The notes under the pieces: model-generated
Told to the model about the DNA's origin: nothing
Database searches by the model: none
What the model saw: only the letters and a program-made list of their open reading frames with translations
Made by a program: the position numbers and the translations under genes
Part shown: piece after piece, positions 6,418 through 55,969 of the stretch
Layout: the number at the start of each line of letters is the position of its first letter
How positions within the stretch are numbered: position 1 is the stretch's first letter
Source of the DNA: Candidatus Babeliales bacterium
GTDB taxonomy: Bacteria > Babelota > Babeliae > Babelales > UASB340
Direction: 5' to 3'
NCBI GenBank assembly: GCA_023133515.1
Contig: JAGLWI010000005.1
Location: forward strand, 70,548-134,547
Length of the DNA: 64,000 bases

Positions 6418-7266
6418 ATGAATCCAAAAAATGGATTTAAAAAAAAATTAACAAAAAAATGGAAAAGAAAAATTATATTAACAATAACAATAATCCTACT
6501 TTTCTTTTTCATTTTAAATCGCATCTTTTTTTTCAAAAAAAGTTTTCTTGAAAACTTCGCAGGCAATTTAATATATCCAGTAATATTCGTATCAAGTAAT
6601 ATCAAATGTTTTGCTAACCATTTTTTTCAAAAAAGAAAAAATTATAAAGAACTTGAAAAAAAATATAAAATTTTAAAAACAGAAAAAGAAAAATTGCTTA
6701 AGCAAAATATCAAATTGAAAGCAAGTTTACACTACAATTCACTTACTAAAGATATTTTAGATTTTCAAAAAAGATACGATCTAAAAACAGCAATGTTATC
6801 AAAAATACTTGTAAAAAACTTTACATCACAAGAACATTATTTTTTAATAAACAAAGGAAGTAAAGATGGAATTCAAAAAAATATGTTGGGTATATATAAA
6901 TTTCAAATAGTTGGAAAAATAGTTGATGTTTTTAGATGGTACAGTAAAATGGTTTTAATCACGGACAAAAATTGTAAAGTAGCTGCTTTTACAAACAAAA
7001 CAAATGCCCAAGGAATTGTAATTGGACAAAATATAAAAAATCAACTTAAAATGGATTATGTAAATCATCTTTCTTCTATGGAAAAAGACGATTTTGTAAT
7101 ATCAAGCGGCCATGGATTAATATTTCCAGAAGGATTTTGTTTAGGAAAAATAAAAGATTATAAAACTGAAGGAGTTTACCACAAAATAACAGTTGAACCT
7201 TTAGTAGATTTTTCAACACTCAAATTCTGTTTGTTGATAAATCAAGAAAAAATTACCTCTTTCTAG
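6418..7266 (+). CDS. mreC: rod shape-determining protein MreC
   Basis: 282 aa. N-terminal TM anchor, coiled-coil ([21 protein letters not shown]), then a beta-rich C-terminal domain ([13 protein letters not shown]...GIVIG). Confidence 0.6.
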
Positions 7267-7308
7267 CCAATTTTCCTTTTTTTTGATACAAAATATAAAT
7301 ATGCTTTT

Positions 7309-7385
7309 GCGCCTGTAGCTCAATTGGATAGAGTAGCGGACTTCGAATCCGAAGGTTGCAGGTTCGAGTCCTGCCAGGCGCACCA
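7309..7385 (+). tRNA. tRNA-Arg (anticodon TCG)
   Basis: Hand-folded 77-nt cloverleaf: acceptor GCGCCTG/CAGGCGC, anticodon loop CTTCGAA, T-arm GCAGG-TTCGAGT-CCTGC, encoded CCA. Confidence 0.9.
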
Positions 7386-7453
7386 GCCTTCGCTCATAGT
7401 AATGAGCTTCCACCGTCGCTAAAGCTATGGTGGACACGGTCGGTTGGCATGCC
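7386..7453. repeat. GC-rich hairpin repeat (family 1) abutting tRNA-Arg
   Basis: Starts GCCTTCGC immediately after the CCA. Internal stems GCTCAT/ATGAGC and CCACC(7410-7414)/GGTGG(7429-7433). Ends GGCATGCC followed by a T-run. Confidence 0.75.
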
Positions 7454-7534
7454 ATTTTTTTAAAAAATATATAGAAAATTATATATCTATAATCTAAATT
7501 ATAGTATTGCAAGCCAACTTTTAAACAAATTTTT

Positions 7535-7611
7535 GTGCCTATAGCTCAGGTGGATAGAGCGAACGATTCCTAATCGTTAGGTCGCAGGTTCGAGTCCTGC
7601 TAGGCACACCA
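7535..7611 (+). tRNA. tRNA-Arg (anticodon CCT)
   Basis: 77-nt cloverleaf: acceptor GTGCCTA/TAGGCAC, anticodon loop TTCCTAA, the same T-arm as the other Arg tRNAs, encoded CCA. Confidence 0.9.
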
Positions 7612-7733
7612 GCTTTCGCCAAGGCTTACGCCGTCGCATAAAGCTATGGCGCACAGGTCAGCTGGCACGGCCAGCCTTCGCCAAGGCTTCCGTCTTCACA
7701 TAAAACTTCAACAAACAAAACCTGGCAAGCAAA
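7612..7733. repeat. two tandem units of the GC-rich hairpin repeat (family 1)
   Basis: GCTTTCGCCAAGGCTT-ACGCC-GTCGCATAAAGCTA-TGGCG-CACAGGTCAGCTGGCACGGCCA, then a second, AT-decayed unit GCCTTCGCCAAGGCTTCCGTCTTCACATAAAACTTC...CCTGGCAAGC. Confidence 0.75.
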
Positions 7734-7891
7734 CTAACTACCTTAAAATTCAAATAGAACAAATTATAATTTTCTAAATAAATTTCTTCTCTACAAGTAA
7801 AAAACTACCCCCATTTTTCTTTCATATAAACCAAGAGTAAAATAATAGTAAGGCTAAGGTTATTTGAAAAATATCTAAAATATGGGGGGAT
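7734..7891 (+). promoter_or_regulatory. conserved 5' leader/promoter region of secreted module, copy A
   Basis: Roughly 90% identical by eye to 15802-15960. Contains TATAAT (about 7775-7780), C5 (7808-7812) complementary to the G6 run/SD (7884-7889), and AATATGGGGGGATATG at the start site. Confidence 0.6.
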
Positions 7892-8665
7892 ATGAAAATG
7901 AAAAAAATAGTATTTTCAATTATATTGCTATCATTGGTTTCTCTGGGGTTTGTGAAATGTAAAAAGAGTAATGATCTTGCCCAGCAATCACTTGACGCAC
8001 TTGCATTAAAGGTGGCAGAATTGGAGGGTATGCTCAAAAAAATAGAAAACGAAAAGAGTAAAAGTTCAGATAAGAGAGTTTCTTCAGACCTTATCAATCA
8101 GGTTCTTAATAACGCAAAATATGTATCACAATTTCTTTTTGATCAGTTTAAATTTTTTATGGATAAAGGAGATAAGGTTATTTCTAAAAAGTTTTTCATA
8201 GGAGTAATGTTTCTTATTGGGCCTCTTTTGTTGCTTGAAAATAAAGTGCTTGGACTTGGCATGACAAGTGCCATTATAAAAAAGATCACAGGAATTTTTG
8301 TACATGGAGGAAAGGAAGTAGCAAAAGACGTTGTTGATGTGGTAGTTGATGAAGTCAAATCGGATCTCTGGTTTGTTGCAAAGTTAGGGGGAATTTGGGT
8401 TGGTATTAAAGCAGCAGGATCTTTTGCGTCTTCGTTAGCGACGAAGATCGGGGGCAATGCTGGTGAAATTTTGACCAAACATTCCACATTAAGTAAATTA
8501 TCTGCAACAACAGGAGCTGTTATTGCTGCTGTTACGGCTCCAAAAGCACTGGTTGTTACTGTTCCATTATTTTTATTGCACAGATATTATTCTCATAATC
8601 ATGTAATCCCAAATTGGCAGGAAGCGTACCAGGATTTTGGACTTAATTATATTTTTGGATCTTAA
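7892..8665 (+). CDS. orphan signal-anchored protein, module gene 1 (copy A)
   Basis: 257 aa. Hydrophobic N-terminus MKMKKIVFSIILLSLVSLGFVKC, coiled-coil segment, and Gly/Ala-rich hydrophobic C-terminal half (GGIWVGIKAAGSFASSLATKIGG). Paralog of 15961..16623. The true start may be the second ATG at 7898. Confidence 0.6.
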   Translation: MKMKKIVFSIILLSLVSLGFVKCKKSNDLAQQSLDALALKVAELEGMLKKIENEKSKSSDKRVSSDLINQVLNNAKYVSQFLFDQFKFFMDKGDKVISKKFFIGVMFLIGPLLLLENKVLGLGMTSAIIKKITGIFVHGGKEVAKDVVDVVVDEVKSDLWFVAKLGGIWVGIKAAGSFASSLATKIGGNAGEILTKHSTLSKLSATTGAVIAAVTAPKALVVTVPLFLLHRYYSHNHVIPNWQEAYQDFGLNYIFGS

Positions 8666-8772: not shown

Positions 8773-9381
8773 ATGGAAAAACATATTTTGAAAGTGCTTA
8801 TGTTTGTCATTTTTAGTATGGTGTTTACTGTCAATCAATATCCACAAGATTTTCAATATCAGGATTTATCTTTTAAAAATATGATCTCTAAAGATTTAAA
8901 TTTTTTCTATTTTTATAAAACACACTTATACAAAGCAGATTTTCGATTTTCAGATTGTTACAAAACAGATTTTCGATGTGCTGATATGAGATATACTAAT
9001 TTCCGTTTTGCAAAATTACATGGAGCTAAATTACAGAAAGCAAATTTGCATGGGGCTGATTTTACTCAGGCGGATTTGGAGAACGCAGATTTAACAGGAG
9101 CGAAAATTGAAGGGATTATTGTAGGAGAGTATACCAATTTAGATGGAGTTAAGGGAATTCCAAAAGAAATATTAGACAAGCTAAAACAAACCATAAAAGA
9201 GAAGACTGTTCTTGCTGAAGAGGAGGAACGTAGACAGATAGAGTTTATCAAAAGCATTCCTGATAGGATCTTTTATTATCCAGAAAAAATTGTTTCTTTT
9301 TTGATTTCTGTTCCAAAACATGTTGCTTTAAAAATCATCGATCGGTTTTATTCTAAACAAGAAATTGTGGAAGAGTCTTGA
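8773..9381 (+). CDS. pentapeptide-repeat protein with signal-like N-terminus, module gene 2 (copy A)
   Basis: 202 aa. Repeats such as ADFRF SDCYK TDFRC ADMRY TNFRF AKLHG AKLQK ANLHG ADFTQ ADLEN ADLTG. Hydrophobic N-terminus. C-terminal motif VSFLISVPKHV is shared with copy B. Confidence 0.8.
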   Translation: MEKHILKVLMFVIFSMVFTVNQYPQDFQYQDLSFKNMISKDLNFFYFYKTHLYKADFRFSDCYKTDFRCADMRYTNFRFAKLHGAKLQKANLHGADFTQADLENADLTGAKIEGIIVGEYTNLDGVKGIPKEILDKLKQTIKEKTVLAEEEERRQIEFIKSIPDRIFYYPEKIVSFLISVPKHVALKIIDRFYSKQEIVEES

Positions 9382-9540: not shown

Positions 9541-10977
9541 ATGAAACAAATATTTCGCCTATTATTTTTAGTTGTATCAATATTTTGTACTTTCAAAACA
9601 AGATGTTGTAATGAAAATATAAACTGTGGTAAATCAAAACTATATTCAGCTGCGAACAAGGGAGAATTTGAGCGTTTAAAATATTTAATTGAAGAAAAAA
9701 ATATAGATTCTAAAAGTTGTCCACTGTTATTACATTGTGTTTGTAATAGTAGTGAAGGAAATTTAGATATTGTTAAATATCTCATTGAAGAACAAGGTTT
9801 TGATCTAAATTTTGATCCTCCAAAAAGATGTTTTTATTGGTTATTTGGTCATTGTTGTATTGAATATTATAATGCTCCATTATTTTATGCATTTAAAAAA
9901 GGAAATGTTGATATAGTAAAATATCTTTTATCTAAGTTAAGGTTCCCTAAAGAATTTACCGAAACTGAATCGCAGATAACAAAAGAAAAAATTATACAAT
10001 TTACACCAAAAAATAAAATAGCAGAAAGAATTATATGCTTTTGCCAAAAAGAAGAAATAGAAAAATTAGATAAATTCCTTAAGAAACAAAAAATAAACTT
10101 AAAAATTTTTACAGAACAATATAATGATGAAATCATGAAATATATTCATATACGTAACATAAAGAGAAATTCTGACAATTTTAACTTGGATAATTTAGAA
10201 TATATTTACCCATTAGAAATAGCATTTAAATTACGATCTATAGATTTATTGAAATATCTTATTGAGGAATGCAAGCTTGATTTTACAAACACAAGACATG
10301 AAAATATTTTTTATAACTTTTTTGAAAATGCATATCATGACGATTTAGATTATAAAATATTAGATTGCACTAAATATCTTATTGAAGAATGCAAAATTGA
10401 TCCAAATATAAAGGGTTCTAATGGTGAAACTCTTTTGCACTATGTATGCCAATTTTGTTGCTGTAAAAAAAATTTAGAGGTAATTGATTATTTGATAAAA
10501 AAAGGAATAGATCCAAACATCCAAAATGAAAATGGGGATACGCCTTTACATATAGCGATAACATATAACAATATGGAAGTTATGAAACACTTAATTGAAA
10601 AGCATAATGTTGATCTAAATATAAAATCTAATGATGGAGAGACTCCTATTTTACAAATTCAAACTTCGGAGGTTCCTTTAGAAATTGTTGATTATCTTAT
10701 AAAAAAAGGTGCTGATCCAACAGTGCAAGATAAGTATGGAGTAAATATTTTACATTGTGCTTGTTGGTATGGTCGTTTAGATATAGTTAAATATCTTATA
10801 GAAATATGTAATATGGATCCATGTGTACCTCAAAAAGATGGTCGTACGGTATTGGATATTACAAAAGAATTGGCTTATAATACAAACTTTGATCGTTGGA
10901 TTCATAAAAATAAAGAAAAGTTTGAAAAGTTCAAAGTAGAGTGTTTAAAAATAATTGAGTATTTAGAGCGACTTTAA
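9541..10977 (+). CDS. ankyrin-repeat protein with signal-like N-terminus, module gene 3 (copy A)
   Basis: 478 aa. Multiple ANK units (GETLLHYVC, GDTPLHIAI, GETPILQ, NILHCACWYGRLDIVKYLIE). N-terminus MKQIFRLLFLVVSIFCTF. Confidence 0.85.
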   Translation: MKQIFRLLFLVVSIFCTFKTRCCNENINCGKSKLYSAANKGEFERLKYLIEEKNIDSKSCPLLLHCVCNSSEGNLDIVKYLIEEQGFDLNFDPPKRCFYWLFGHCCIEYYNAPLFYAFKKGNVDIVKYLLSKLRFPKEFTETESQITKEKIIQFTPKNKIAERIICFCQKEEIEKLDKFLKKQKINLKIFTEQYNDEIMKYIHIRNIKRNSDNFNLDNLEYIYPLEIAFKLRSIDLLKYLIEECKLDFTNTRHENIFYNFFENAYHDDLDYKILDCTKYLIEECKIDPNIKGSNGETLLHYVCQFCCCKKNLEVIDYLIKKGIDPNIQNENGDTPLHIAITYNNMEVMKHLIEKHNVDLNIKSNDGETPILQIQTSEVPLEIVDYLIKKGADPTVQDKYGVNILHCACWYGRLDIVKYLIEICNMDPCVPQKDGRTVLDITKELAYNTNFDRWIHKNKEKFEKFKVECLKIIEYLERL

Positions 10978-11176
10978 GAATTAAGGACCATTACATCGTG
11001 GACATAATATTATTATTAATTAAATCATAATTTAACGTTAAATCGAAATTAAATTATCTAATAAATGGCTTGTATTAATGTAAGACATTTATTAGAAATC
11101 AACAAGTTGCTCTCTTCCCGTAAAAACACTTTTTTTATCCCATAACTAATGATTGAATATCAAATAGTCTTAGACA

Positions 11177-11217
11177 TTCAAAAGAAAAGTTGCGGAAATA
11201 GTCCGATAAGGTACATT
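11177..11217 (+). promoter_or_regulatory. conserved promoter-like motif (copy 1)
   Basis: TTCAAAAGAAAAGTTGCGGAAATAGTCCGATAAGGTACATT is near-identical to 20264-20304. Reads as TTGCGG-N16-TACATT on the + strand. Confidence 0.35.
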
Positions 11218-12996: not shown

Positions 12997-13070
12997 ACGC
13001 CATACTTCGCTAAAGCTTCGTATGGCACGGCCATCCTTCTTCCGCTCATGCTAAGCTTGTCAAAGCACAG
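12997..13070. repeat. GC-rich hairpin repeat (family 1 variant), left direct repeat
   Basis: ACGCCATACTTCGCTAAAGCTTCGTATGGCACGGCCATCCTTCTTCC matches 14334-14380 at 46 of 47 positions. It is followed by a decayed GCTCATGCTAAGCTTGTCAAAGCAC segment. Confidence 0.8.
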
Positions 13071-13377: not shown

Positions 13378-14088
13378 TCAAATTGGACCTGTAGCTACTC
13401 CTCCTGCAATTCCTCCTGCTAATGCCATTGCAGTGGTAGTAGCTTCTATTGGTGCAGCCAATGTTGTTTCTAATGACATAACTACTAGTGCTCCAGCAGC
13501 CGGTGTGGCAACTATACTTACTACACCACCTATTGCCAAAATTGCACCATGACAAACCGCAGACGAAACAAACTTCCCAATCCAAGCACCACCAATAGCA
13601 CCCCATACACCACCACCAGAAAGCCTTACATTAAAACATAATGTATACTCTCCATTACTCTTTTGTTCGATTTTTATATAGGCACTTTCTGATAATTTTT
13701 CAAGAATTCTATTTGATTTATGTTTTTCAAGTTTAGAAATATCTTTAGTGTCAACATGCCTGATAATTTTCTCAACTTTTTCTGGAGAAACTTTTACCAT
13801 TATGACTTTTTGACCATCAATTTCTATCTCTTTTACATTTCCCAGCACTTTTTGTAGTTCTTCTGTAGAAATGTTTGATATCGCTTTGTCTACAAAACAA
13901 TTTTGAACGGTATGTAATATTCCATCATGTTTAACATAGAAAGTCTCGTCACCATGATATAATGCTATATCTCCCAAACCTCTAGAAGCACTCACATTAA
14001 ACTTGTTAATTTCAACCAATTTTGCAGAACATGTACCTAAAGAAAAAACTAAAGCTAAGGGAAAAAATACTTTTTTAAATATTTTCAT
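13378..14088 (-). CDS. secreted protein with C-terminal Gly/Ala-rich (glycine-zipper-like) hydrophobic domain
   Basis: 236 aa. Signal-like MKIFKKVFFPLALVFSLGTCSA. C-terminal about 85 aa GGGVWGAIGGAWIGKFVSS...AGGIAGGVATGPI. Confidence 0.6.
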   Translation of the reverse strand: MKIFKKVFFPLALVFSLGTCSAKLVEINKFNVSASRGLGDIALYHGDETFYVKHDGILHTVQNCFVDKAISNISTEELQKVLGNVKEIEIDGQKVIMVKVSPEKVEKIIRHVDTKDISKLEKHKSNRILEKLSESAYIKIEQKSNGEYTLCFNVRLSGGGVWGAIGGAWIGKFVSSAVCHGAILAIGGVVSIVATPAAGALVVMSLETTLAAPIEATTTAMALAGGIAGGVATGPI

Positions 14089-14333
14089 TACATCTTTCGT
14101 ATGCTTAATAACAATTTACTATCTAAAATCTGTTGATTATAAAAATTATAATATTACATAGTTGCTCCTCTTTTTTTTGTAAAAATAAACCGATGTACAA
14201 AAAAAACAATTTCATAACAGATTTTATAGATTTCAACCAAATACACAATAGAAATCTAAACAAAAAGCATTTGCTTAATATGATTTATTTGAATCACTTC
14301 AAAAGAAAAAGTTCTAAAATAATCCCAACAGGT

Positions 14334-14380
14334 ACGCCATACTTCGCTAAAGCTTCGCATGGCACGGCCATCCTTCTTCC
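14334..14380. repeat. GC-rich hairpin repeat (family 1 variant), right direct repeat
   Basis: ACGCCATACTTCGCTAAAGCTTCGCATGGCACGGCCATCCTTCTTCC, in the same orientation as 12997-13043. Confidence 0.8.
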
Positions 14381-15454: not shown

Positions 15455-15744
15455 TTGTTGTTTAAACTGGGTATAATTAGAATAACAGAAATTGTTAATG
15501 CATATCTTGTAAGCTTTTTTTGATAAATATCTAAAAAGCAAACTATTGGTTATATCTAACTTGCCTATTCTAACAAGGCTTCAAGTGTAGTTCCTGAGGG
15601 TTTTTAGATATGTCGTTGAACCACTTTCCATGATGCAAACAATGCACTTTTTATGCTAAATTTAGATTCCATTAAAAAAATCAAAAAAAACTTAAGCCTA
15701 AATTAAATTCATATCAAAAATAGAAAAAACGGTTTGTATATCTT

Positions 15745-15960
15745 GCTTTCGCCAAAGATTTCGTCTTCGCATAAAACTTCAACAAACAAAACCTGTCAAG
15801 CAAACTAACTATCCAAAAGTCCAAATAGAACAAATTATAATTTTCTAAATAAACTTCTTCTCTACAAGTAAAACCTACCCCCATTTTTCTTTCATATAAA
15901 CCAAGAGTAGAATAATAGTAAAGCTAAGGTTTATTCGAAAATATCTAAAATATGGGGGAT
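15745..15960 (+). promoter_or_regulatory. decayed family-1 repeat unit plus conserved 5' leader of secreted module, copy B
   Basis: GCTTTCGCCAAAGATTTCGTCTTCGCATAAAACTTC... aligns with 7674-7891 at roughly 90% by eye. TATAAT about 15834-15839, C5 15878-15882, G5 15954-15958. Confidence 0.6.
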
Positions 15961-16623
15961 ATGAAAATGAAAAAAATAGCATTTTCAATCATTTTGTTAT
16001 CATTTGTTTCTTTTGGTTTGATTCAATGTAAAAAAAATCCAATTGTAGCCAAAGACATTTCTCAACAATCTCTTGATGAACTTAAAAATAAAATGTCTGA
16101 ATTGAAAAATATGTTTAAAAAAGCAGAAGCTGAGAAAACAAAAAATCCAACAAAGAAAATTTCTGAAAAAATTCAATATCAAATTCTTGATAAAATAAAA
16201 AATATATCACATTTTCTTTTTGATCAGCTTAAGTTTGTAGCAGATAAAAGTGATAAAATTATTTCTAAAAAGTTTTTTATAGCTGCAATGTTGATAACAG
16301 CACCGGCAGTTTCTCTTTACTGCAAATTTTTTAATCCAAATTTTATTAAAAAGATAATAGAAAAAATTTCTGCTATAATTACGCATAAAGCTGGAGACGC
16401 CGGGGCATCTGCAACTAAGGGCTTCTTTAAGGGAATTGCGGAAATGGTATGGAATAATAAATTAATAACAGCATTGGTTGTTGGAGGATATGTAACGATA
16501 ACGGTTACTACAGGGATTGTAAGTGTTTTAGGTGGAAAAATGTTTGAAGTACTTGGTAGTGAATTAGGGAGTTATGTAGCCAAAAAACTACTGCCCGCAG
16601 TAGTGGAAGCGGCAGCGAAATAG
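15961..16623 (+). CDS. orphan signal-anchored protein, module gene 1 (copy B)
   Basis: The ORF track starts at 15952 (MGDMKMKK). By alignment with copy A the likely start is ATG 15961 (MKMKKIAFSIILLSFVSFGLIQC). Shares FLFDQLKF..DK.DKIISKKFFI with copy A, and the C-terminus diverges. Confidence 0.6.
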   Translation: MKMKKIAFSIILLSFVSFGLIQCKKNPIVAKDISQQSLDELKNKMSELKNMFKKAEAEKTKNPTKKISEKIQYQILDKIKNISHFLFDQLKFVADKSDKIISKKFFIAAMLITAPAVSLYCKFFNPNFIKKIIEKISAIITHKAGDAGASATKGFFKGIAEMVWNNKLITALVVGGYVTITVTTGIVSVLGGKMFEVLGSELGSYVAKKLLPAVVEAAAK

Positions 16624-16639: not shown

Positions 16640-17215
16640 ATGAAAAAAATATTTTTCATATTTGTTTTGATTATCTATTTATGTGGAGGTTCTGCTTACA
16701 CTTATGATATAAACGCCTTAGAGGAGGCGACGTCTGGATCTAAATATTTACGCTATAGCCATTTATCAGGGGCACCTCTACGCCGGATGTTTTTGTGGCA
16801 TGTTGACTTGTCCCATTCAGATTTATCATATGCTAGGTTGTCTGGGGCAGAATTACCTTATACAGATCTATATCGTGTAAACTTATCTCATGCAGATTTA
16901 TCACATGCGTTGTTGGTAAGAATAAAATTACATGAAACAAAAGTTGAAGGGGCAAACTTCTATGGAGCGATTGGCCTTACAAACGTTAAAAAGAAATATC
17001 TACGAGAACATGGTGCTATAAATGTTCCTGAGGATCGTCCAGAAGAAGAAAAAGAAATGGAAATTGTATTTAAAGCGGGGCCTTGGATTACAGGCCCACT
17101 GAATATTTCAAAAAAAGTATTATCATTTATTTTTCTAACTATTCCCAAACACATCAAAAAACAATTAATTGATAGTTGTTTTTTCGTTAAAAAAATAAAA
17201 GAAAAATCTAAATAA
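16640..17215 (+). CDS. pentapeptide-repeat protein with signal-like N-terminus, module gene 2 (copy B)
   Basis: 191 aa. Repeats VDLSH SDLSY ARLSG AELPY TDLYR VNLSH ADLSH ALLVR. C-terminal LSFIFLTIPKHI. Confidence 0.8.
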   Translation: MKKIFFIFVLIIYLCGGSAYTYDINALEEATSGSKYLRYSHLSGAPLRRMFLWHVDLSHSDLSYARLSGAELPYTDLYRVNLSHADLSHALLVRIKLHETKVEGANFYGAIGLTNVKKKYLREHGAINVPEDRPEEEKEMEIVFKAGPWITGPLNISKKVLSFIFLTIPKHIKKQLIDSCFFVKKIKEKSK

Positions 17216-17343: not shown

Positions 17344-19029
17344 GTGAAAGTGATAAATCATGTTTTTATCTTTATTTCATTAATTTTATTTTCAACAAAC
17401 ATCTCCTTTACACAAAATTCAACTACCAATTCTACAAAAACATTTGAAGTTTCGAAAGACGATCCCGCTATTATTAAAGCAATAAAACAAAATGACATTG
17501 AAAAACTTAAAGAACTTTTGAATAAAGGAGAAAACGTTAATTGTGTAGATGATGAAGATGGAACTTCTTTGCATTGGGCAATTTATCTGAACAATGAAAA
17601 TGCATTCATTGAAGTTTTAAAACACAATCCTAATATTAACAAAAAAGATAAATACGGTATGACACCATTGCATTGGGCAATAGAAAAAAACAATTTGAAA
17701 ATAACAACAGATCTTTTAATATTTGGAGTAGAAATTGATGAAAAAGATAACAATGGCCACACCCCATTGCATTTAGCCGCAAAACTTAACAGAATAGAAA
17801 TAATAACTAAACTTGTACAATTCGGAGCAAATAAAGAATCTAAAGATAATCATGGCGATTCTCCATTACATTTAGCTATAAAACATAACAAAATAGAAAG
17901 TATTAAAAAACTTGCAGAATTAGGGGCAAACGTTAACTGTGTAGAAGAAAATAACTATACCCCATTGCACCTTGCAGTTAATCTAAATAATGAAAACGCT
18001 ACAGTTGAAATATTAAAATATAAACCAGATATTAATAAACAAGATATTTATGGTCAAACACCGTTACATTTAGCATCAATCGTTAACAATATAAAAGCAA
18101 TAGAAAAACTTGTAACATTAGGAGCAGATATAAATACACAAAATATCTATAGCTGTACACCATTACATGGAGCGGTACAATTCAATAAAATTGAATCAAT
18201 AAAAACACTTATTAAATTTAATGCAAATATAGAAGAAAAAAATAACGAAGGTTGTACAGCATTGCATGTTGCAGTAAAACATAATCATATAGAAGTAATA
18301 TCACTTCTTACAAAATTAGGTGCAAACATTAATTCAAAAGATAACGACGGCTGGACTTCATTGCATTGGACAGTAAATCAAAATAATATCAAACTAACAG
18401 AAAAACTCATTGAATTGGGTACAGATAAAAATTCTAAAAATCTTACTGGTCTCACTGCATTGCATATTGCTATATATAATAACAATTTAGAAATGATAAA
18501 AATTCTTTTAAACCTAAATGTAGAAAAAGAGTCAAAAGATAATGATGGTTGTACACCATTACATTTATCAGCAAAACTTAACAGAAAAGAAGCAATTAAA
18601 CTGCTTATTAAATATGGAACAAATAAAAATGCAAAAGATAATTATGGGGATTCTCCATTACACTTGGCAGCAGAATTTAATAGAGTAGATGCAATAGCAA
18701 CTCTGGTTGAACTTGGTACAAATATAGAGATAAAAAATAATTCTGGTGAAACTCCACTACATATAGCGGTAATAGAAAACAACATAGAAGTAATATCAAC
18801 TCTAGTTGAACTTGGCGCGAATATAGAAGCAAAAGATAAATACGGCTATACATCATTACACTTGGCAGCAAATAAAAATTACTTAGAAATAATAAAAAAT
18901 CTTTTAACATTCGGAGCAAACAAAACAATTAAAAATAATAATGGAGAAACTGCTTTAGATCTATATATCAAAATATCATCCACTTTAGATGAAAAACCAA
19001 ATATCAAAATTGTTAAAATGCTTTCTTAA
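17344..19029 (+). CDS. ankyrin-repeat protein with signal-like N-terminus, module gene 3 (copy B)
   Basis: 561 aa, GTG start. About 15 consecutive ANK units (G.TPLH.A...N....V..L...GA..N). N-terminus MKVINHVFIFISLILFSTNISF. Confidence 0.9.
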   Translation: MKVINHVFIFISLILFSTNISFTQNSTTNSTKTFEVSKDDPAIIKAIKQNDIEKLKELLNKGENVNCVDDEDGTSLHWAIYLNNENAFIEVLKHNPNINKKDKYGMTPLHWAIEKNNLKITTDLLIFGVEIDEKDNNGHTPLHLAAKLNRIEIITKLVQFGANKESKDNHGDSPLHLAIKHNKIESIKKLAELGANVNCVEENNYTPLHLAVNLNNENATVEILKYKPDINKQDIYGQTPLHLASIVNNIKAIEKLVTLGADINTQNIYSCTPLHGAVQFNKIESIKTLIKFNANIEEKNNEGCTALHVAVKHNHIEVISLLTKLGANINSKDNDGWTSLHWTVNQNNIKLTEKLIELGTDKNSKNLTGLTALHIAIYNNNLEMIKILLNLNVEKESKDNDGCTPLHLSAKLNRKEAIKLLIKYGTNKNAKDNYGDSPLHLAAEFNRVDAIATLVELGTNIEIKNNSGETPLHIAVIENNIEVISTLVELGANIEAKDKYGYTSLHLAANKNYLEIIKNLLTFGANKTIKNNNGETALDLYIKISSTLDEKPNIKIVKMLS

Positions 19030-20120: not shown

Positions 20121-20263
20121 TTATTCCCTTTCTCAATATTGCTATCCGTTAACAATTAAAATCAAACTTCCAACTCTATTAACGTCAATCATAATACCAA
20201 ATTTATATTTTTCATCTACCTATATCCTACAACTAGAAATTTCATTTTAAAAATATCTAGATC

Positions 20264-20304
20264 TTCAAAAAAAAAGTTGCGAAAATAGTCCAATAAAATA
20301 CACT
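20264..20304 (+). promoter_or_regulatory. conserved promoter-like motif (copy 2)
   Basis: TTCAAAAAAAAAGTTGCGAAAATAGTCCAATAAAATACACT reads as TTGCGA-N16-TACACT. It lies about 115 nt upstream of the + strand ORF at 20419. Confidence 0.4.
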
Positions 20305-38602: not shown

Positions 38603-39541
38603 TTATTTTTTGTACAAAACCAAACGATCAAGATCATTTAATGGATGTTTTTCATCACACATCTGAGCAAGTTCAGATGAAGAAACATGAGTATAAATCT
38701 CTGTGGTAGAAATTGTTTTATGCCCAAGCAATTCTTGAATAATTCTTAAATCTACACCCTGATTTAAAAGATGGGTAGCAAAAGAATGACGAATTTTATG
38801 TGGTGTTAATTTACGATCGATTTTTAAAAATTTTCTAAACATCTCAATAATTCGTTGTACAGAACGAGACGTTAATCTTCCACCCAAATAATTTAAAAAA
38901 ATAAACTCTATTTCTTTCTGTTTTGTAATCAAAGGTCGTTCAACTCTTAAATATTTGAGCAAAACATCCTTTGCCTTTTGACCAAAAAGAACCATCCGTT
39001 CTTTACGTCCTTTTCCAAAAATTCTTATCGCTTTGTTAGAAAAATCAATATCAGAAATTTTAACATTGACCAATTCTGAACATCGAACACCTGTTGCATA
39101 AATCATCTCAAAAATAGTTCTATCTCGATATGGAAATTTGGTAGGAAGATCGTCATTTTTTATTGAATCAAGTAGATAAAAAATCTCATCAACACTAAGA
39201 GTAGCTGGCAATTTTTTATCAAGACGAGGCGCTTTAAAATTTACATTCAATTTAATACCAACAGATCTCAAAAAAAACGTAAAAGATCGTACACAAGAAA
39301 GTTTGCGTGATAATGTTGTCTTTGCAATTTTTTTATAAAACAATGAAACAATATATCGACGCAAAATAGCATCAAAAGAATGTTTTAAACCATTTTCTTT
39401 TGAAAGAATTCTGTCCCAAAATTTTATAATTTGATTCAAATCTGCTTGATAAGCTCGCAACGTATGTTCAGAAACATTTTTTTCTACCTCCAAAAAAATT
39501 AAAAAATCTCTAATTTTATTCTTAAAATTTTTTAAATCCAC
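38603..39541 (-). CDS. tyrosine site-specific recombinase XerC/XerD
   Basis: 312 aa. ATGVRCSEL, HKIRHSFATHLL and LGHKTISTTEIYTHV (R-H-R-Y catalytic set). Confidence 0.85.
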   Translation of the reverse strand: MDLKNFKNKIRDFLIFLEVEKNVSEHTLRAYQADLNQIIKFWDRILSKENGLKHSFDAILRRYIVSLFYKKIAKTTLSRKLSCVRSFTFFLRSVGIKLNVNFKAPRLDKKLPATLSVDEIFYLLDSIKNDDLPTKFPYRDRTIFEMIYATGVRCSELVNVKISDIDFSNKAIRIFGKGRKERMVLFGQKAKDVLLKYLRVERPLITKQKEIEFIFLNYLGGRLTSRSVQRIIEMFRKFLKIDRKLTPHKIRHSFATHLLNQGVDLRIIQELLGHKTISTTEIYTHVSSSELAQMCDEKHPLNDLDRLVLYKK

Positions 39542-39672: not shown

Positions 39673-40326
39673 ATGAAAAAAATAATAACAATAAAAAAAA
39701 TTTTAAGTCTCTTATCAAAAGAAACAAAAAAATTTTCTCCAACTTTAATCGAAACAATTATTCAAAAATATGGAAAAAATCCATTTATAATTCTAATATG
39801 CTGCCTTTTAAGTCTACGATCCAAAGATGTCGTCACCATTCCTATCTCACAAAATCTATTAAAAAAAGCCAAAACACCACAACAAATTTTAAAATTATCA
39901 CTTAGTCAAATTGAAAAAATAATCTTTAAAATAGGATTTTACAGAAATAAAGCTAAAGTACTTCATAAGGTTTCAAAAGAAATTTTAGATAGATTCAATA
40001 ACAAAGTGCCTGCAAACATAGAACAACTACTAAAATTGCACGGAGTTGGAAGAAAGACTGCTAATCTTGTCATGGGTCTAGCATACAACATACCAAGTAT
40101 CTGTGTTGATATTCATGTCCATAGAATATCAAATAGACTTGGGATCATCAAAACCAAAACTCCAGAACAAACAGAAATCGAATTAAAAAAAATTATTCCA
40201 AAAAAATACTGGATTATTTGGAACGGGCTTCTTGTAAAATGGGGACAAAACATTTGTATATCAATTAAACCTAAATGTAATCAATGTGCAATAGAAAAAT
40301 TGTGTAATAAAGTTATTAAAAAATAA
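39673..40326 (+). CDS. nth: endonuclease III
   Basis: 217 aa. HhH-GPD LHGVGRKTANLV. C-terminal Cys cluster C-x6-C-x2-C-x5-C. Confidence 0.85.
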   Translation: MKKIITIKKILSLLSKETKKFSPTLIETIIQKYGKNPFIILICCLLSLRSKDVVTIPISQNLLKKAKTPQQILKLSLSQIEKIIFKIGFYRNKAKVLHKVSKEILDRFNNKVPANIEQLLKLHGVGRKTANLVMGLAYNIPSICVDIHVHRISNRLGIIKTKTPEQTEIELKKIIPKKYWIIWNGLLVKWGQNICISIKPKCNQCAIEKLCNKVIKK

Positions 40327-40390
40327 GCCGTTCAAATCCTTCGATATGATTTTTCAGTTAGGAAAAATCGTATCGAAGGATTTGAACGGC
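40327..40390. repeat. 64-nt near-perfect palindrome (family-2 GC-rich element) acting as bidirectional terminator
   Basis: GCCGTTCAAATCCTTCGATA ... TATCGAAGGATTTGAACGGC (20-bp perfect arms). Begins at the base after the nth stop and ends 10 nt before the thrS stop. Confidence 0.8.
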
Positions 40391-40400
40391 TAAAAATCCC

Positions 40401-42146
40401 TCAATATTTACAAAGCTCTTGTGCTCTCCCAATCAAATCATCAACAAAAATTCCAAATTCTTGTTTTCCATCTAAATCTCTCAAAGTAATTGTTCCTTTT
40501 TCCTGTTCTTTTTTACCAATAACAATCATCCAAGGAACATAATTAAGTTGCGCGTTTCTAATTTGTGCAGAAATTTGATCTCCACTTTTATCAATCTCAA
40601 CCCTAACATCTTTATCCAAAAGTTTTTCATAAACCTGTTGTGCATAATCTTTTTGTTGATCTGTAATTGTTAAAATTCTTGCTTGAATAGGAGAAAGCCA
40701 AAATGGAAGCTTCCCTTTATAATGCTCAAGTAAAATTCCCAAAAATCTTTCAATAGAACCATAAATTGCCCTATGAATCATAATAGGAACACCCTTACTT
40801 TGATCTGATTTGATATATTCCAATTTAAAATTTTGAGGCATAAAAAAATCAAATTGAACTGTACCACATTGCCACTCCCTTCCAATAGCATCCTCAATAA
40901 CCATATCAATTTTAGGACCATAAAAAGCCCCTTCACCTTCATCAATTTGATAATCAAAACCTTTTTTTTCAAGAGCATTTTTAAGTGCGTTCGTTGCTTT
41001 ATCCCATAAAGCTTTTTCACCTATGTGTTTTTTTGGCATTGTTGCAACAAACATTTTTACTTTTTCAAATCCAAACTTTTTATACACATTTTGGGCAAGA
41101 TCTAAAATTTTTACAACCTCATTCTCTGCTTGATCAGATGTACAATAAATATGAGCATCATCTATTGTAAAACTTCTTACACGAAAAAGACCATGCAAAA
41201 CACCAGAAAGTTCATATCTATATACATGTCCATATTCTGCAACTCTTAAAGGAAGTTGTCTATAAGAATGAGATCTCTGTTTAAAAATTAAAATACCACC
41301 TGGACAATTCATCGGTCTTACACAATAAGTTGTTTCGTTAATCTTGGTAAAATATATATGCTCTTTGTAGTTATCATAATGTCCTGAAGTTTTCCATAAA
41401 GACTCATTCATAATCATAGGAGTTTTGATTTCCATATAATCTTTTTTTAGCATATGTCGCATATAACCAATCAATTGATTGTAAATAATAAGACCTTTGT
41501 GATGGAAAAAAGGAGTTCCAGGTGCCTCCACATTAAAACTGAAAAGATTCAGTTGTTTTCCAATTTTACGATGATCATACTTTTTTGATTCTTCTACTTT
41601 TTTTAAATAATCCTCAAGTTCTTCTTGAGAAAAAAAGGCAATCCCATAAATTCTTTGTAAAGCTGATTTATTTTTATCTGCACGCCAATATGCACCAGCC
41701 ACGGATGTCAATTTAAAATATTTTATCTGACCTGTACTCTTTACATGCCCACCTTTACAAAGATCACAAAAATCACCTTGACAATAAATTGTCACATTTG
41801 CATCTTCAATCTCATCAAGCAATTCTTGTTTAAATTCATTATCTTTAAAAAGTTCTCGAGCCTTTTTCTTAGAAATATTTTTTCCAACAATTTTATAATC
41901 TTTTTTGGCTAATTCATTCATCTTAGCTTCAATTTTTAACAAATCAGCCTCTGTAAAATTTTTAGGTGGCAAAAAATCATAAAAAAATCCTATTTTAGTT
42001 GTAGGACCAATAGTAAGTTTTGTTCCTGGATAAAGCTCTAATACAGCATGAGCCAAAAGATGCGCTGCAGAATGCCTCAGATTATCAATATTTTCTTTAT
42101 CGTTCATAACAGCTCCTAATAAAGCGCCAAAAGGATAGTTGTTCAA
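40401..42146 (-). CDS. thrS: threonyl-tRNA synthetase (no N-terminal TGS domain)
   Basis: 581 aa. Starts just before the editing-domain HSAAHLLAH motif. Class II core motifs and a C-terminal anticodon-binding domain. Confidence 0.9.
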   Translation of the reverse strand: MNNYPFGALLGAVMNDKENIDNLRHSAAHLLAHAVLELYPGTKLTIGPTTKIGFFYDFLPPKNFTEADLLKIEAKMNELAKKDYKIVGKNISKKKARELFKDNEFKQELLDEIEDANVTIYCQGDFCDLCKGGHVKSTGQIKYFKLTSVAGAYWRADKNKSALQRIYGIAFFSQEELEDYLKKVEESKKYDHRKIGKQLNLFSFNVEAPGTPFFHHKGLIIYNQLIGYMRHMLKKDYMEIKTPMIMNESLWKTSGHYDNYKEHIYFTKINETTYCVRPMNCPGGILIFKQRSHSYRQLPLRVAEYGHVYRYELSGVLHGLFRVRSFTIDDAHIYCTSDQAENEVVKILDLAQNVYKKFGFEKVKMFVATMPKKHIGEKALWDKATNALKNALEKKGFDYQIDEGEGAFYGPKIDMVIEDAIGREWQCGTVQFDFFMPQNFKLEYIKSDQSKGVPIMIHRAIYGSIERFLGILLEHYKGKLPFWLSPIQARILTITDQQKDYAQQVYEKLLDKDVRVEIDKSGDQISAQIRNAQLNYVPWMIVIGKKEQEKGTITLRDLDGKQEFGIFVDDLIGRAQELCKY

Positions 42147-54123: not shown

Positions 54124-55671
54124 GTGATGCATAATAGTAAAATAAACCTTCGCCAAGGCTTCCACCTACGCAAAAGCTTCGGTGGACATGTCGGCTTACA
54201 AATAAAAATTCTAGCTTCATTTTTACTTTCTCTTTTACTAATCTTTAACCAAATAACTCCGAAAAACAAACAAAATATAGAAAAAAATATTTATCCAGGA
54301 CTTGAACTTTTTTCTCAAACTATAGCCAAAATCGAAGCAAAAGGTTTTAGAAAAAAAGTAGATTTTCTAAAATTCACTCAAGAAGCTCTAAAAGCTGCAA
54401 TCCCATCAATAGTAGATGCCCATTCATCATTTTTTCCACCAAAAAGTTATAAAGCAACATTAGAATCTACATCTGGAGAATTTTCGGGCATTGGAGTTAG
54501 TATTACCGGCAAAACACCACAGGACGACGTATTGGTAATAGTAGATGTTATTGAAAGTGGCCCTGCACAAAAAACTGGACTTAAAAGTGGTGATAAAATT
54601 ATAGAGGTTGATGGTAAAAAACTAAGAAGTCTTTCAACAGATGAAGTCATAAATAACCTTTTAAAAGGAAAAGTTGGAACAAAGGTTAAATTAAAAATTA
54701 TAAGAGACAAAAAACCAATGGAGTTTGAAATCACAAGAGAAATAATAAAAGATCAAACATCACTTTGTTACAATTTTAAAAATCAAAATGTTCATTATCT
54801 ATCTTTAAGAATGTTTACACAAAAATCTGCAAAACAAATATCAGAATTATTAAAAAAAGCTCAAAAACAAAAATGTAATGGAATTGTTCTAGATTTAAGA
54901 AGAAATCCAGGTGGAATCTTGGACTCCGCAATAGACATGTCTGGTCTATTCTTGGAAAAAAATTCATTAGTCGTAACTACAAAAGATAGGGAAGGAAAAA
55001 CAATATCAGAATATAGAACTAATACAAAACCAATTTTTAATAGTAATATCCCAATCTTTGTACTGATAGATAATTTTACAGCTTCCGCATCAGAAATATT
55101 AGCAGAAACATTGCGATATTATTCTTCAAATAAAAATATCAAAAATAACAATTTAATGGTCTTTTTAGTAGGAACACCAACTTTTGGAAAAGGATCTGTG
55201 CAAGAAGTAATACCATTAATAAATGGATGTGCATTAAAACTAACAACTATGCTTTATTACATGCCAAATGGTAAATCTCCCCAAGCTAAAGGTGTTAAAC
55301 CAGATTTTATTATTGAAAATAAAATTATGCCACCAAATGAAATTAAATTGATCAATGATTTATATGGTCGTGAAAAAGTTCTAAAAAATCACATAACTGA
55401 AAAAGAAGTAAGTAATATAAAAGATACAAATACAAAAAGCATAAAAAAAATAAAAACCAACGAAAAAGAAGAAGAAAAAAGTTGGGAAGAAAAGAAAAAA
55501 GATTCAATTCTTAAGGATAACGTTATTCAGTCCAGTGTAAATATGATAGAAATGTTAGAAATGGCAAAAAAAATTGATACAAAACTTGTAGAAACAAGAA
55601 AAAAAGCATTAATTTTTTTAAAAAAACACTTTTTAACTGACGATTCAACTGGCCTTGAAAAAATGATATAA
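54124..55671 (+). CDS. carboxy-terminal processing (S41, tail-specific) protease with PDZ domain
   Basis: 515 aa. AAGGAG SD 6-9 nt upstream of GTG 54124 / ATG 54127. PDZ (GLKSGDKIIEVDG). S41 motifs DNFTASASEI and TFGKGSVQ. The N-terminal 24 codons include a family-1 repeat. Confidence 0.85.
   Translation: MMHNSKINLRQGFHLRKSFGGHVGLQIKILASFLLSLLLIFNQITPKNKQNIEKNIYPGLELFSQTIAKIEAKGFRKKVDFLKFTQEALKAAIPSIVDAHSSFFPPKSYKATLESTSGEFSGIGVSITGKTPQDDVLVIVDVIESGPAQKTGLKSGDKIIEVDGKKLRSLSTDEVINNLLKGKVGTKVKLKIIRDKKPMEFEITREIIKDQTSLCYNFKNQNVHYLSLRMFTQKSAKQISELLKKAQKQKCNGIVLDLRRNPGGILDSAIDMSGLFLEKNSLVVTTKDREGKTISEYRTNTKPIFNSNIPIFVLIDNFTASASEILAETLRYYSSNKNIKNNNLMVFLVGTPTFGKGSVQEVIPLINGCALKLTTMLYYMPNGKSPQAKGVKPDFIIENKIMPPNEIKLINDLYGREKVLKNHITEKEVSNIKDTNTKSIKKIKTNEKEEEKSWEEKKKDSILKDNVIQSSVNMIEMLEMAKKIDTKLVETRKKALIFLKKHFLTDDSTGLEKMI
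54146..54195. repeat. GC-rich hairpin repeat (family 1) inside the 5' end of the ctp CDS
   Basis: ACCTTCGCCAAGGCTTCCACCTACGCAAAAGCTTCGGTGGACATGTCGGC with a CCACC/GGTGG stem. Translated in frame as LRQGFHLRKSFGGHVG. Confidence 0.75.
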
Positions 55672-55726: not shown

Positions 55727-55803
55727 GGTGGGCGTAGCTCAGTTGGCAGAGCATCAGATTGTGGTTCTGAGGGTCACGGGTTCGAATCCCGTCGTTCACC
55801 CCA
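55727..55803 (+). tRNA. tRNA-His (anticodon GTG)
   Basis: Cloverleaf with an encoded G-1 (55727) opposite discriminator C. Anticodon loop TTGTGGT. Encoded CCA. Confidence 0.9.
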
Positions 55804-55805
55804 GT

Positions 55806-55881
55806 CGGGGCGTGGCGCAGTTGGTAGCGCACTCGCTTTGGGAGCGAGGGGTCGTCAGTTCGAGTCTGACCGCCCCGACCA
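55806..55881 (+). tRNA. tRNA-Pro (anticodon TGG)
   Basis: Acceptor CGGGGCG/CGCCCCG, anticodon loop TTTGGGA, encoded CCA. Only 2 nt after tRNA-His. Confidence 0.9.
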
Positions 55882-55892
55882 TTTTTAAATTA

Positions 55893-55969
55893 GTGCCCGT
55901 AGCTCAGTTGGATAGAGCAACGGATTTCTAATCCGTAGGTCGCAGGTTCGAGTCCTGCCGGGCACACCA
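55893..55969 (+). tRNA. tRNA-Arg (anticodon TCT)
   Basis: Acceptor GTGCCCG/CGGGCAC, anticodon loop TTTCTAA, encoded CCA. Confidence 0.9.

Follow-up and report, generated by a model that had tools for sequence, protein, structure and literature searches.

A hairpin repeat family abutting the encoded CCA ends of tRNA and tmRNA genes in Babeliales and other bacteria

Why do GC-rich hairpins begin at the very base after the CCA end of all three tRNA-Arg genes, and after neither of the two other tRNA genes, in one stretch of a Candidatus Babeliales genome? The stretch, referred to here as the window, comprises 64,000 nucleotides of bacterial DNA with 29% G+C (assembly GCA_023133515.1, contig JAGLWI010000005.1, positions 70,548 to 134,547 of the forward strand), and its genes include gatA, mreC, bipA, recJ, an S41 protease gene, an RF-1-domain gene and ankyrin-repeat genes. 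The hairpins belong to a real repeat family that crosses phylum boundaries: its stems covary, it abuts CCA with single-base precision, its units nest, form tandem arrays and are inserted in frame in protein genes, and it has no specificity for tRNA-Arg. We infer that the units are mobile now or were so formerly.

Junctions and architecture of the units

The tRNA genes were called with ARAGORN over the whole window, with the covariance models of Rfam as a second check. Five genes were found, all on the forward strand (Table 1), and the same five are the only Rfam matches at the gathering threshold. As the original prediction had stated, an element begins at the base after the CCA of each tRNA-Arg gene, where CACCA is followed, as quoted there, by GCCTTCGCTCA, GCTTTCGCCAAGG and GCCTTCGCGTAAGG; with up to three mismatches, GCCTTCGCCAAGGCTTC matches three times in the window, against 0.05 expected. 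The absence of an element after tRNA-His and tRNA-Pro was likewise borne out, and is probably explained by tight clustering, because these genes lie 2 and 11 nt before the next tRNA with no element between. Because the element comes after the last tRNA of three transcription units, which by chance are all tRNA-Arg, the tRNA-Arg pattern in the window is incidental. The three isoacceptor genes also have in common an identical T-arm (GCAGGTTCGAGTCCTGC) and near-identical 3′ strands of the acceptor, which suggests that they arose by duplication or evolved in concert in this genome.

The unit has the form X-NNN-UUCGCCAAGGCUUC-N'N'N'-X'-CA(N)G-(X), or in RNA letters X-NNN-[UUC GC-CAAG-GC UUC]-N'N'N'-X'-CA(N)G-(X), in which, at tRNA genes, X is the CCA of the tRNA and X' is TGG. 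Its 6-bp stem is free in sequence and complementary, a conserved CA(N)G tail stands 3′ of the stem, and a second X that is able to pair with X' is often found at the end of the unit. In the fold of the 14-nt block, a symmetric 3x3 internal loop (UUC/UUC or UAC/UAC) closes GC-(CAAG)-GC. Units occur singly (about 35 nt), nested in the loop side of another (60-70 nt; window copies A, B and E), in threes, in tandem and as inverted doublets. Among loci from a scan of bacterial genomes (below), the consensus of the two-unit form is (t)CCgCC TTCGCCAAGGCTTC CgCC TTCGCTAAAGCTaC GGcGG ACAAGtC GGcGG ACAgG, the second block reading UUC-GC(UAAA)GC-UAC; the two 14-nt blocks are near-invariant and the 4-6-nt arms between them vary. 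The form typically linked to tRNA genes is the single unit, CCA NNN TTCGCCAAGGCTTC N'N'N' TGG CA(N)G CCA. Some trailers among AT-rich relatives swap the apical GC(CAAG)GC for GCUGC-UAC-GCAGC or GCUC-AUAC-GAGC and keep the internal loop, and copy A likewise has a replaced apical stem with the internal loop kept (UUC-GCUCAU-AGUA-AUGAGC-UUC, its first apical hairpin).

The window was searched with a covariance model, R1, built from an alignment (A1) of 48 copies from other organisms and window copy E. Nine copies were recovered (Table 1), including all those that had been named earlier outside the tRNA junctions (at 12997, 14334, 15745 and 54146, and a degenerate one near 63620-63680). Since copies A and B lay outside the training set, their matches indicate that the window copies belong to the cross-organism family. 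The complementary stems first described were confirmed as CCACC/GGTGG, CGCCGT/ATGGCG (with one G.T pair) and GCCATAC/GTATGGC, with the amendment that the outermost stem of copies A and B takes in the CCA of the tRNA itself. A strict scan of the window for a 6-bp stem, TTC, a hairpin and TTC recovered the inner hairpins of copies G and E and nothing else, apart from one match that is likely due to chance.

Copy A is a nested two-unit form whose outer stem pairs CCAGCC (7383-7388) with GGTTGG (7442-7447), the first three pairs being contributed by the CCA of tRNA-Arg(TCG) (7383-7385). Its inner hairpin, CCACCGU...AUGGUGG, encloses GC(UAAA)GC, and its tail, CAUGCCA (7448-7454), provides a second CCA that is followed by T7 (7455-7461); the predicted RNA fold (-28.3 kcal/mol, z=-3.3) is a three-helix structure that matches these stems. 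Copy B is a canonical two-unit form, CCAGCT-TTCGCCAAGGCTTA-CGCC-GTCGCATAAAGCTAT-GGCG-CACAGGTC-AGCTGG-CACGG-CCA, in which the CCA of tRNA-Arg(CCT) (7609-7611) pairs with TGG in the outer stem CCAGCT/AGCTGG. It terminates in a second CCA (7671-7673), directly after which (7673/7674) copy C begins in the same register as after a tRNA; the 3′ half of C has decayed to AT-rich sequence. Copies C (from 7674) and D (from 15745) share a segmental duplication of about 290 bp, with pieces 85-92% identical, and are therefore not independent copies. That duplication (7674-7965 and 15745-16034) includes the decayed element, the region upstream of two paralogous genes (7892-8665 and 15952-16623) and the 5′ ends of these genes, which are of signal-peptide/lipoprotein-like type, have no Pfam match and are followed by pentapeptide-repeat genes at 8773-9381 and 16640-17215, respectively. 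Copy G is a single unit with a CCA of its own, ACG-CCA-TAC-TTCGCTAAAGCTTC-GTA-TGG-CACGG-CCA, then TCCTTCTTCC; copy H is 98% identical to it over 47 nt in direct orientation, and their flanks are unrelated. Copies G and H bracket a lone orphan open reading frame (ORF; 13378-14088, minus strand) with no Pfam match, an arrangement that might have come about by recombination or represent a mobilised cassette. Copy F is truncated, CCA-GCC-TTCGCGTAAGGCTTC-CATG-TTCGCATAAAGCTTC-GAAGG-ACAGT, having lost the outer 3′ arm, and runs directly into the ATG (56017) of the RF-1-domain (ArfB-like) gene (Pfam RF-1).

Table 1. tRNA genes and hairpin element copies in the window
Feature	Position	Strand	Support and remarks
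tRNA-Arg (anticodon TCG)	7309-7385	+	ARAGORN; Rfam tRNA 71.4 bits
tRNA-Arg (anticodon CCT)	7535-7611	+	ARAGORN; Rfam
tRNA-His	55728-55803	+	ARAGORN; no element; 2 nt to tRNA-Pro
tRNA-Pro	55806-55881	+	ARAGORN; no element; 11 nt to tRNA-Arg(TCT)
tRNA-Arg (anticodon TCT)	55893-55969	+	ARAGORN; Rfam; last gene in His-Pro-Arg cluster
Copy A	7383-7461	+	R1 7381-7457, E=2e-10; outside training set
Copy B	7609-7673	+	R1 7607-7675, E=3e-15; outside training set
Copy C	7671-7733	+	R1 7677-7721, E=8e-3
Copy G	12997-13043	+	R1 13001-13031, E=8e-4; fold; structural scan
Copy H	14334-14380	+	R1 14338-14368, E=4e-3
Copy D	15740-15810	+	R1 E=4e-4; decayed
Copy E	54141-54208	+	R1 E=2.5e-20; training member
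Copy F	55967-56016	+	R1 55965-56034, E=6e-5; several broken pairs; fold z=-1.4
Degenerate copy	63579-63649	-	R1 E=2e-3; TCC-ACC...GGT-GGA-CATG type; sole minus-strand copy

Covariation, distribution and genomic context

The link between the unit and CCA ends is best seen in metagenomes, which were scanned for a T-arm followed by 12 nt, CCA, 0-10 nt and TTCGC(N1-2)AAGGCTT; at least 120 loci were found. Among the matches listed, 122 junctions place the block 3 nt after CCA in 106 cases, 6 nt after it in 11 and at other offsets in 5, an offset of 3 meaning that the CCA of the gene serves as X and TGG as X', and an offset of 6 that the whole stem lies beyond CCA, beginning with the very next base. 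ARAGORN assigned a gene to 106 of these junctions, covering at least 17 tRNA isotypes and transfer-messenger RNA (tmRNA): Ser 17, tmRNA 15, Leu 12, Arg 12, Val 6, Ala 6, Met 6, Glu 5, Lys 5, Gly 4, Phe 4, Gln 3, Pro 3, Tyr 2, Ile 2, Asp 2, Cys 1 and Asn 1. At least 5 of the 16 junctions with no ARAGORN gene lie at contig ends with less than 300 nt of upstream sequence. In other genomes of the Babeliales/Dependentiae type the element follows tRNA-His, tRNA-Ser and tRNA-Leu genes, so that the link to tRNA-Arg as such that the original prediction had proposed does not hold; one such metagenome-assembled genome (MAG) of the Babeliales (locus L064) has a single unit after tRNA-His, where CCCA is followed by ACC TACGCCAAGGCTAC GGT TGG. 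Adjacency to tRNA genes is rare among the genome loci listed and confined to AT-rich carriers (tRNA-Ser at L061, tRNA-Leu at L062). The element is found between clustered tRNAs at L160 and L235; about 10 of the 27 other CCA-encoding tRNA genes in AT-rich loci have such a trailer, and most tRNAs in GC-rich loci do not. The triplet NNN differs among the tRNAs of one contig (L168, L183, L218 and this window).

The stems change while they remain complementary. A1 comprises 49 two-unit copies drawn from many phyla; 88% of its cells pair on the nested structure, and 50 double-change cells are found against 16 in shuffles, a number reached in 0 of 500 shuffles and sharply lost on sliding. In a second alignment (A2) of 89 tRNA-linked single units, 96.5% of cells are paired, and the three variable pairs show 76 double changes against 19.6 +/- 3.3 in shuffles, again reached in 0 of 500; the CCA:TGG pairing is retained in 90-98%. 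Among 95 distinct offset-3 junctions, NNN and N'N'N' are perfectly complementary in 77, with at least 11 different triplets, and TGG follows N'N'N' in 76. The outer triplets covary away from tRNA genes as well (TCC/GGA, the commonest, CCC/GGG, TTC/GAA and CAA/TTG), with CA(N)G after the stem. This much agrees with the earlier observation that the stems vary from copy to copy without losing their complementarity. The further step from compensatory change to a selected RNA hairpin is insecure, because non-Watson-Crick cells on the tRNA-sense strand are A.C more often than G.T (28 versus 11; 10 versus 5), whereas selection for a hairpin in the sense RNA predicts the opposite. Template-switch "correction" of quasi-palindromes could produce complementary arms without selection, as for example TAA/TTA at the AT-rich flank of copy E.

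Sequence 3′ of the unit follows a pattern of its own. C-N1-6-GCCA comes after TGG in 57 of 95 distinct tRNA-linked junctions, and this second, downstream CCA means that TGG is able to pair either with the CCA of the tRNA or with the downstream one. In contigs with less than 46% G+C, a T-run follows the second CCA in 15 of 35 such copies, and in GC-rich carriers in none. The second CCA is also the starting point of the next unit in the window (B, then C) and in a tandem array at L221. At 52 of 94 junctions, an inverted copy of (CA)NNN-TTCGC lies further downstream, at a distance of about 40 or about 80 nt, usually beside a reverse-oriented unit. An IS-derived miniature inverted-repeat transposable element would have terminal inverted repeats and a target-site duplication; here the CCA...CCA direct repeat (57/95) is complementary to the internal TGG, unlike a target-site duplication, and many copies have neither the repeat nor the distal inverted copy. 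Among AT-rich relatives, a second GC-rich module, (C)CCTTCGTAGCTC...GAGCGAAGTAGGG(C), itself often with a T-run after it, often comes after the tRNA-linked unit (L061 7050-7120, minus strand; L062 3580-3620; L167, L185, L208, L252, L263 and L266); its internal loop is purine-rich (GAA/G(U/A)A), and it appears to be a relative of the family in reverse orientation.

A first degenerate pattern of the two conserved blocks gave 25 matches on viral contigs, of which only that at L016 (60% G+C) was family-like; because this was about chance level, the pattern was tightened before the genome scan. Applied to one genome per species (GTDB), the tightened pattern found at least 119 loci in about a dozen phyla, with a locus G+C of 0.30-0.69, and R1 gave 104 matches on the first 100 of them. 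The loci listed fall in Patescibacteria (including Saccharibacteria, Levybacteria and Peribacteria), Dependentiae/Babeliales, Verrucomicrobiota (Opitutaceae, Akkermansia, Udaeobacter), Kiritimatiellia, Victivallales, Planctomycetota (Planctomycetes), Acidobacteriota (Acidobacteriia), Desulfobacterota, Omnitrophota, Ignavibacteria, Bdellovibrionales and uncultured Proteobacteria, Desulfatiglans and Geobacteraceae being further named carriers. Nearly all carriers are MAGs, and some copies lie in long-read chromosomes of 1.2-6 Mb. The CCA-type unit was not found in viral contigs, and BLAST of the consensus against plasmid and phage records gave no match. MAGs of Bacteroidota contain a variant, ..CTCCGCTAAGTCC TTCGCCAAAGGCTTC GGCC GTCGGCGAAAGCTAC GGCGG.. 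(L033, L049, L068, L075, L077, L084, L097, L110, L123, L128 and L132), which R1 matches weakly in three loci (E 0.002-0.007; L097, L110 and L123) and which may be a sister family.

Copies also occur inside protein genes. The S41 protease gene (ORF 54127-55671; Pfam Peptidase_S41/PDZ) has copy E in frame at its 5′ end as codons 7-23, after a strong AAGGAG ribosome-binding site, and the copy encodes NLRQGFHLRKSFGGHVG ahead of the membrane anchor. This stretch is missing from the N-terminus of all of the first 60 S41 homologues listed (up to 62% identity), and peptide words of the element type occur there in none of the 120 listed; the homologues pass from a few residues straight into the hydrophobic anchor. 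The dnaX gene (DNA polymerase III tau/gamma) contains a copy in three unrelated lineages, namely Peribacteria, an uncultured bacterium with 36% G+C and Sungiibacteriota (L041 2274-2341, L069 6041-6108 and L071 3894-3961), two of these copies being on the coding strand and the third reversed. The in-frame copy at L069 reads ..SSFAKASSYAKATEDTSEDK.. (FTGTQKSSSFAKASSYAKATEDTSEDKDVG), and that at L071 lies near codons 83-103, where Pfam matches the clamp-loader domain in two stretches.

Elsewhere the orientation of copies is mixed and divergent promoter regions are avoided: relative to the flanking genes, 11 intergenic copies are same/same, 9 opposite/opposite, 6 convergent and 1 divergent, a count limited to intergenic classes because ORF-based calls in GC-rich loci are unreliable, with spurious long ORFs on both strands. 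Orientation relative to local GC skew (47 versus 24) was set aside as confounded by gene orientation and contradicted by the window. All-against-all clustering of ORFs across the 239 loci listed (119 genome and 120 metagenome) revealed no recurrent neighbour gene, the exceptions being spurious ORFs of the repeat itself, SmpB beside tmRNA, and dnaX with its in-frame copies; the region between two inverted copies at L089 holds no credible ORF.

Other repeats were observed in the window. Three 80-nt repeats (60-74% identity) ending in ..AAAAGTTGCGnAAATAGTCCnATAAnnTACA lie at 11136-11215, 14257-14336 and 20223-20302, one of them abutting copy H. A second, unrelated palindromic family, GCCGTTCAAATCCTTCGATA...TATCGAAGGATTTGAACGGC, is present at 40313-40390, 63233-63310 and 63315-63392, with a perfect stem of about 20 bp and the T-loop-like GTTCAAATCC in its arm; its copy at 40313 sits between the convergent HhH-GPD glycosylase gene 39673-40326 (+) and ORF 40401-42146 (-), where it could be a bidirectional terminator. 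The ankyrin-repeat genes 17344-19029 and 9541-10977 have a very regular 99-nt periodicity, with 12 repeats at 17696-18972 that are 61-74% identical to a reference repeat; such regular genes are typical of amoeba-associated Dependentiae.

Possible origins and roles

The reading towards which we lean is that the units form a family of small, non-coding selfish hairpin elements of the REP/BIME, REPIN or Rickettsia palindromic element (RPE) kind with a precise affinity for CCA ends. In its favour are the in-frame copy in the S41 protease gene and the copies in dnaX, the nested, three-unit and tandem forms, the decayed copies, the mixed orientation, the lack of a recurrent neighbour gene at the loci listed, the inverted partial copies downstream of many junctions and the excess of A.C over G.T. 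The original prediction had offered a mobile element targeting the 3′ end of tRNA-Arg; the kind of element is retained here, and the target becomes the CCA end of any tRNA or tmRNA gene. Units would be copied in trans by an enzyme and placed beside CCA, and the TGG of the element may find CCA by base pairing, as a guide pairs with its target when HUH enzymes transpose single strands (IS200/IS605, REP/RAYT). The insertion site would be regenerated by the second CCA, with which the unit closes, and this would explain the succession of B and C in the window and the tandem array at L221. Inserted copies would then decay, as C, D and F appear to have done, or stay tolerated as tRNA trailers; in AT-rich lineages the trailer is often followed by a weak TGG-loop-CCA hairpin and a T-run.

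Several points weigh against this selfish-element reading. Among the 30 window ORFs scanned there is no HUH/Y1 transposase, and the sole recombinase is an Xer-like tyrosine recombinase (38603-39541). Mobility itself is a deduction, the nearest relatives having about 60% protein identity and providing no pair of empty and filled sites. A CCA target of 3 nt is far too short to account for the enrichment at tRNA and tmRNA ends, so that structure, transcription, RNA ends or selection must contribute. Neutral selfish DNA is a poorer fit than purifying selection for a function to the near-invariance of the 14-nt motif across phyla and to the retention of CCA:TGG; the guide-target idea fails to explain the offset-6 class, whose members adjoin CCA and do not pair with it; and the differences in NNN among the tRNAs of one contig mean that the copies are no recent burst.

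A cis-acting function is therefore to be weighed beside it, namely that the unit is a conserved 3′-trailer module of tRNA and tmRNA precursors whose dispersed copies are by-products. Such a role is possible, although we consider it doubtful. The UGG would pair with the encoded CCA while a protein or RNase reads UUC/UUC-GC(CAAG)GC, and the CCA end would thereby be defined or protected; alternatively, the trailer might switch between a CCA:UGG hairpin and a UGG:CCA hairpin with a U-run, as a termination device. The specificity for tRNA-Arg of the trailer signal first proposed is rejected, and a general trailer role is still a live reading. It agrees with the single-base precision at CCA (117 of the 122 junctions listed), with the retained CCA:UGG and the perfectly covarying three pairs next to it, with differing apical stems, that of copy A included, that keep the same internal loop, with the presence of such a trailer at about 10 of the 27 further tRNA genes that encode CCA in AT-rich loci, with the ability of UGG to pair upstream or downstream and the ensuing T-run (15/35 in AT-rich contigs), and with the strong over-representation of tmRNA for a single-copy gene (15/122). 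It does not account well for the many copies that are far from tRNAs, in either orientation to genes, or inside ORFs, for the loss of the CCA-pairing arm in copy F and the decay of C and D, for the excess of A.C over G.T on the transcribed strand, or for the lack of the element at the tRNA-His and tRNA-Pro genes of the window and at most tRNAs in GC-rich loci; moreover, a consensus terminator scan of 7200-7950 finds no site. A combined alternative, advanced no more than tentatively, is an undescribed cross-phylum "CCA-to-CCA" hairpin module at tRNA and tmRNA 3′ ends that is either a target-guided mobile element or a processing or termination device. In the target-guided version, a 3-nt UGG would be the guide, and either an HUH-type enzyme acting on single-stranded DNA or a reverse transcriptase that switches template onto mature CCA-3'OH ends would do the copying; the device version, if true, would show how the 3′ ends of CCA-encoding tRNAs are formed in little-studied phyla such as Dependentiae, the Candidate Phyla Radiation (Patescibacteria) and the Planctomycetes-Verrucomicrobia-Chlamydiae group.

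The remaining explanations are far less probable. A signal or target specific to tRNA-Arg would fit the window, where three of three Arg genes and none of the two other tRNA genes have the element, and it is refuted by the metagenomes, where Arg accounts for 12 of the 122 junctions listed beside 16 other isotypes and tmRNA, as well as by the units after His, Ser and Leu in other Babeliales-type MAGs, so that it can hardly be entertained. That a single tRNA-Arg gene was duplicated along with its 3′ flank and the duplicates then changed anticodon is improbable: the three genes are 75-76% identical over 105 nt across the junction and have an identical T-arm, and C and D show that elements are carried in segmental duplications here, yet the trailers differ in architecture (A with a variant apical hairpin, B canonical, F truncated) and in stem triplets (GCC, GCT and GCC), and the same precise junction occurs at unrelated tRNAs and tmRNA on hundreds of other contigs. 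The tRNA-derived, SINE-like retroelement that the original prediction had also considered finds no support in its tRNA-derived form, since there is no tRNA-like sequence or cloverleaf in the element, the ARAGORN and Rfam matches end at CCA, the element consensus is unrelated, and no reverse transcriptase was found near any copy at the genome and metagenome loci listed. Units do begin directly after CCA and finish in CCA, and a reverse transcriptase that switched template from trailer RNA onto mature CCA-3'OH ends might conceivably yield these junctions, a route that would account naturally for tmRNA and every isotype; even so, we rate a SINE-like origin as very unlikely. Scarcely credible is an artefact of MAG assembly, binning or contamination. 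It would suit the preponderance of MAGs and a break, before the first tRNA-Arg, in a second assembly of the locus, and it is contradicted by contigs ranging from 30 to 69% G+C, by lineage-specific variants, by in-frame copies in conserved genes, by long-read chromosomes of 1.2-6 Mb, and by covariation of the elements with their local flanks. Four further candidates were dropped: a self-cleaving ribozyme (no known core, and the unit is too small), an RNase P minihelix mimic (the stem is too short, with no RCCA directly after it), a sigma-54 promoter in the TGGCAC tails (no -12 element) and an integrase att site (no integrase enrichment).

Comparison with known systems

The selfish-element reading finds its closest parallels in small palindromic repeats. 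REP elements are mobilised by RAYT (TnpA_REP) HUH transposases. The units resemble REP, BIME and REPIN sequences in being short imperfect palindromes in many copies (nine per 64 kb here) with a hairpin backed by covariation, in having a short conserved tag by the foot of the stem and stem sub-families with alternative complementary sequences, and in forming inverted doublets and occasional in-frame insertions in genes. They differ in their tag, which follows the stem on its 3′ side as CA(N)G (CNTG when read on the opposite strand) and is not the GTAG or CGTC of the two REP superfamilies surveyed by Di Nocera et al. (2013; PMC3733652), GTAG occurring here only inside the loop of part of the copies (GCTAC/GTAGC). 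That survey also describes in-frame REP insertion into genes, replication and repair genes included, in Opitutus terrae and Rickettsia conorii, and the present motif was not found in it or its supplements. In addition, the apical 14-nt module persists from phylum to phylum, REP families being for the most part confined to a species or genus; the units nest; and precise abutment to the CCA of tRNA and tmRNA genes is no described property of REP sequences. RPEs, which are selfish palindromic repeats of an AT-rich intracellular bacterium, lie both in frame in functional genes and in intergenic regions, according to a 2024 review of miniature inverted-repeat transposable elements (PMC10969869) that does not mention the present element. 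The likeness to RPEs lies in the in-frame insertion in functional protein genes (here the S41 protease and dnaX); the difference, judged by description and not by sequence, is that RPEs are 100-150 bp long and confined to Rickettsia, and the present units are about 35-70 nt long and occur in many phyla.

Three other systems offer partial likenesses. In IS200/IS605 elements and PATEs, an enzyme-bound hairpin is inserted one-sidedly, without terminal inverted repeats, at a short target that is read by an adjacent guide. The resemblance to the present units would be one of working principle only, since no TnpA or RAYT gene was found among the window ORFs scanned and a single hairpin would have to do duty at both ends; with 8 copies on the plus strand and 1 on the minus, two of the copies being duplicates, the strand bias of the window involves too few for a test of strand preference of the IS200/IS605 type. 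Intrinsic terminators and the SPRITE of Streptococcus pneumoniae are likewise GC-rich hairpins after stable-RNA genes, and in AT-rich carriers a T-run is often present; the difference is that the strong hairpin here stands 7-10 nt from the T-run, which only a 3-bp UGG/CCA hairpin abuts, as in copy A, where the U7 run follows that hairpin 7 nt from the strong stem. In the UGGN:NCCA contact of the T-box antiterminator and the GGU:CCA contact of L15 of RNase P, UGG reads the CCA of a tRNA by Watson-Crick pairing. Those contacts are made in trans on mature or precursor tRNA, whereas the UGG described here stands in cis in the trailer, any action of it as RNA being conjectural.

Rfam contains nothing relevant, at E values up to 10, around copies A-C or a canonical GC-rich copy, and the open-access literature, consulted for the motif strings, the peptides and the concept, yielded no description; the family is apparently an undescribed bacterial repeat family. 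It bears on genome annotation because the element breaks assemblies, yields spurious "hypothetical proteins" (peptides ..SFAKAS..ATADKSADK..) and inserts short peptides into real proteins (S41 protease, DnaX), so that annotation pipelines would gain from a model of it. As a related observation, an independent Logan assembly of the locus (SRR13892600_41333, L027) stops some 100 nt past mreC, just before the first tRNA-Arg gene and its repeats, which suggests that short-read assemblies are broken up by these repeats.

Small palindromic repeats normally keep to one lineage, whereas the 14-nt module is near-unchanged at 30-69% G+C in about a dozen phyla, and this conservation points to a conserved partner, either a copying enzyme or a reading factor. 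The CCA end is the one sequence common to every tRNA and tmRNA, and the complementary UGG of the unit therefore provides a testable target rule or a testable hypothesis of 3′-end formation. In kind, the family is closest to REP/BIME sequences and RPEs, from which it is set apart by its cross-phylum conservation, its nesting and its abutment to CCA.

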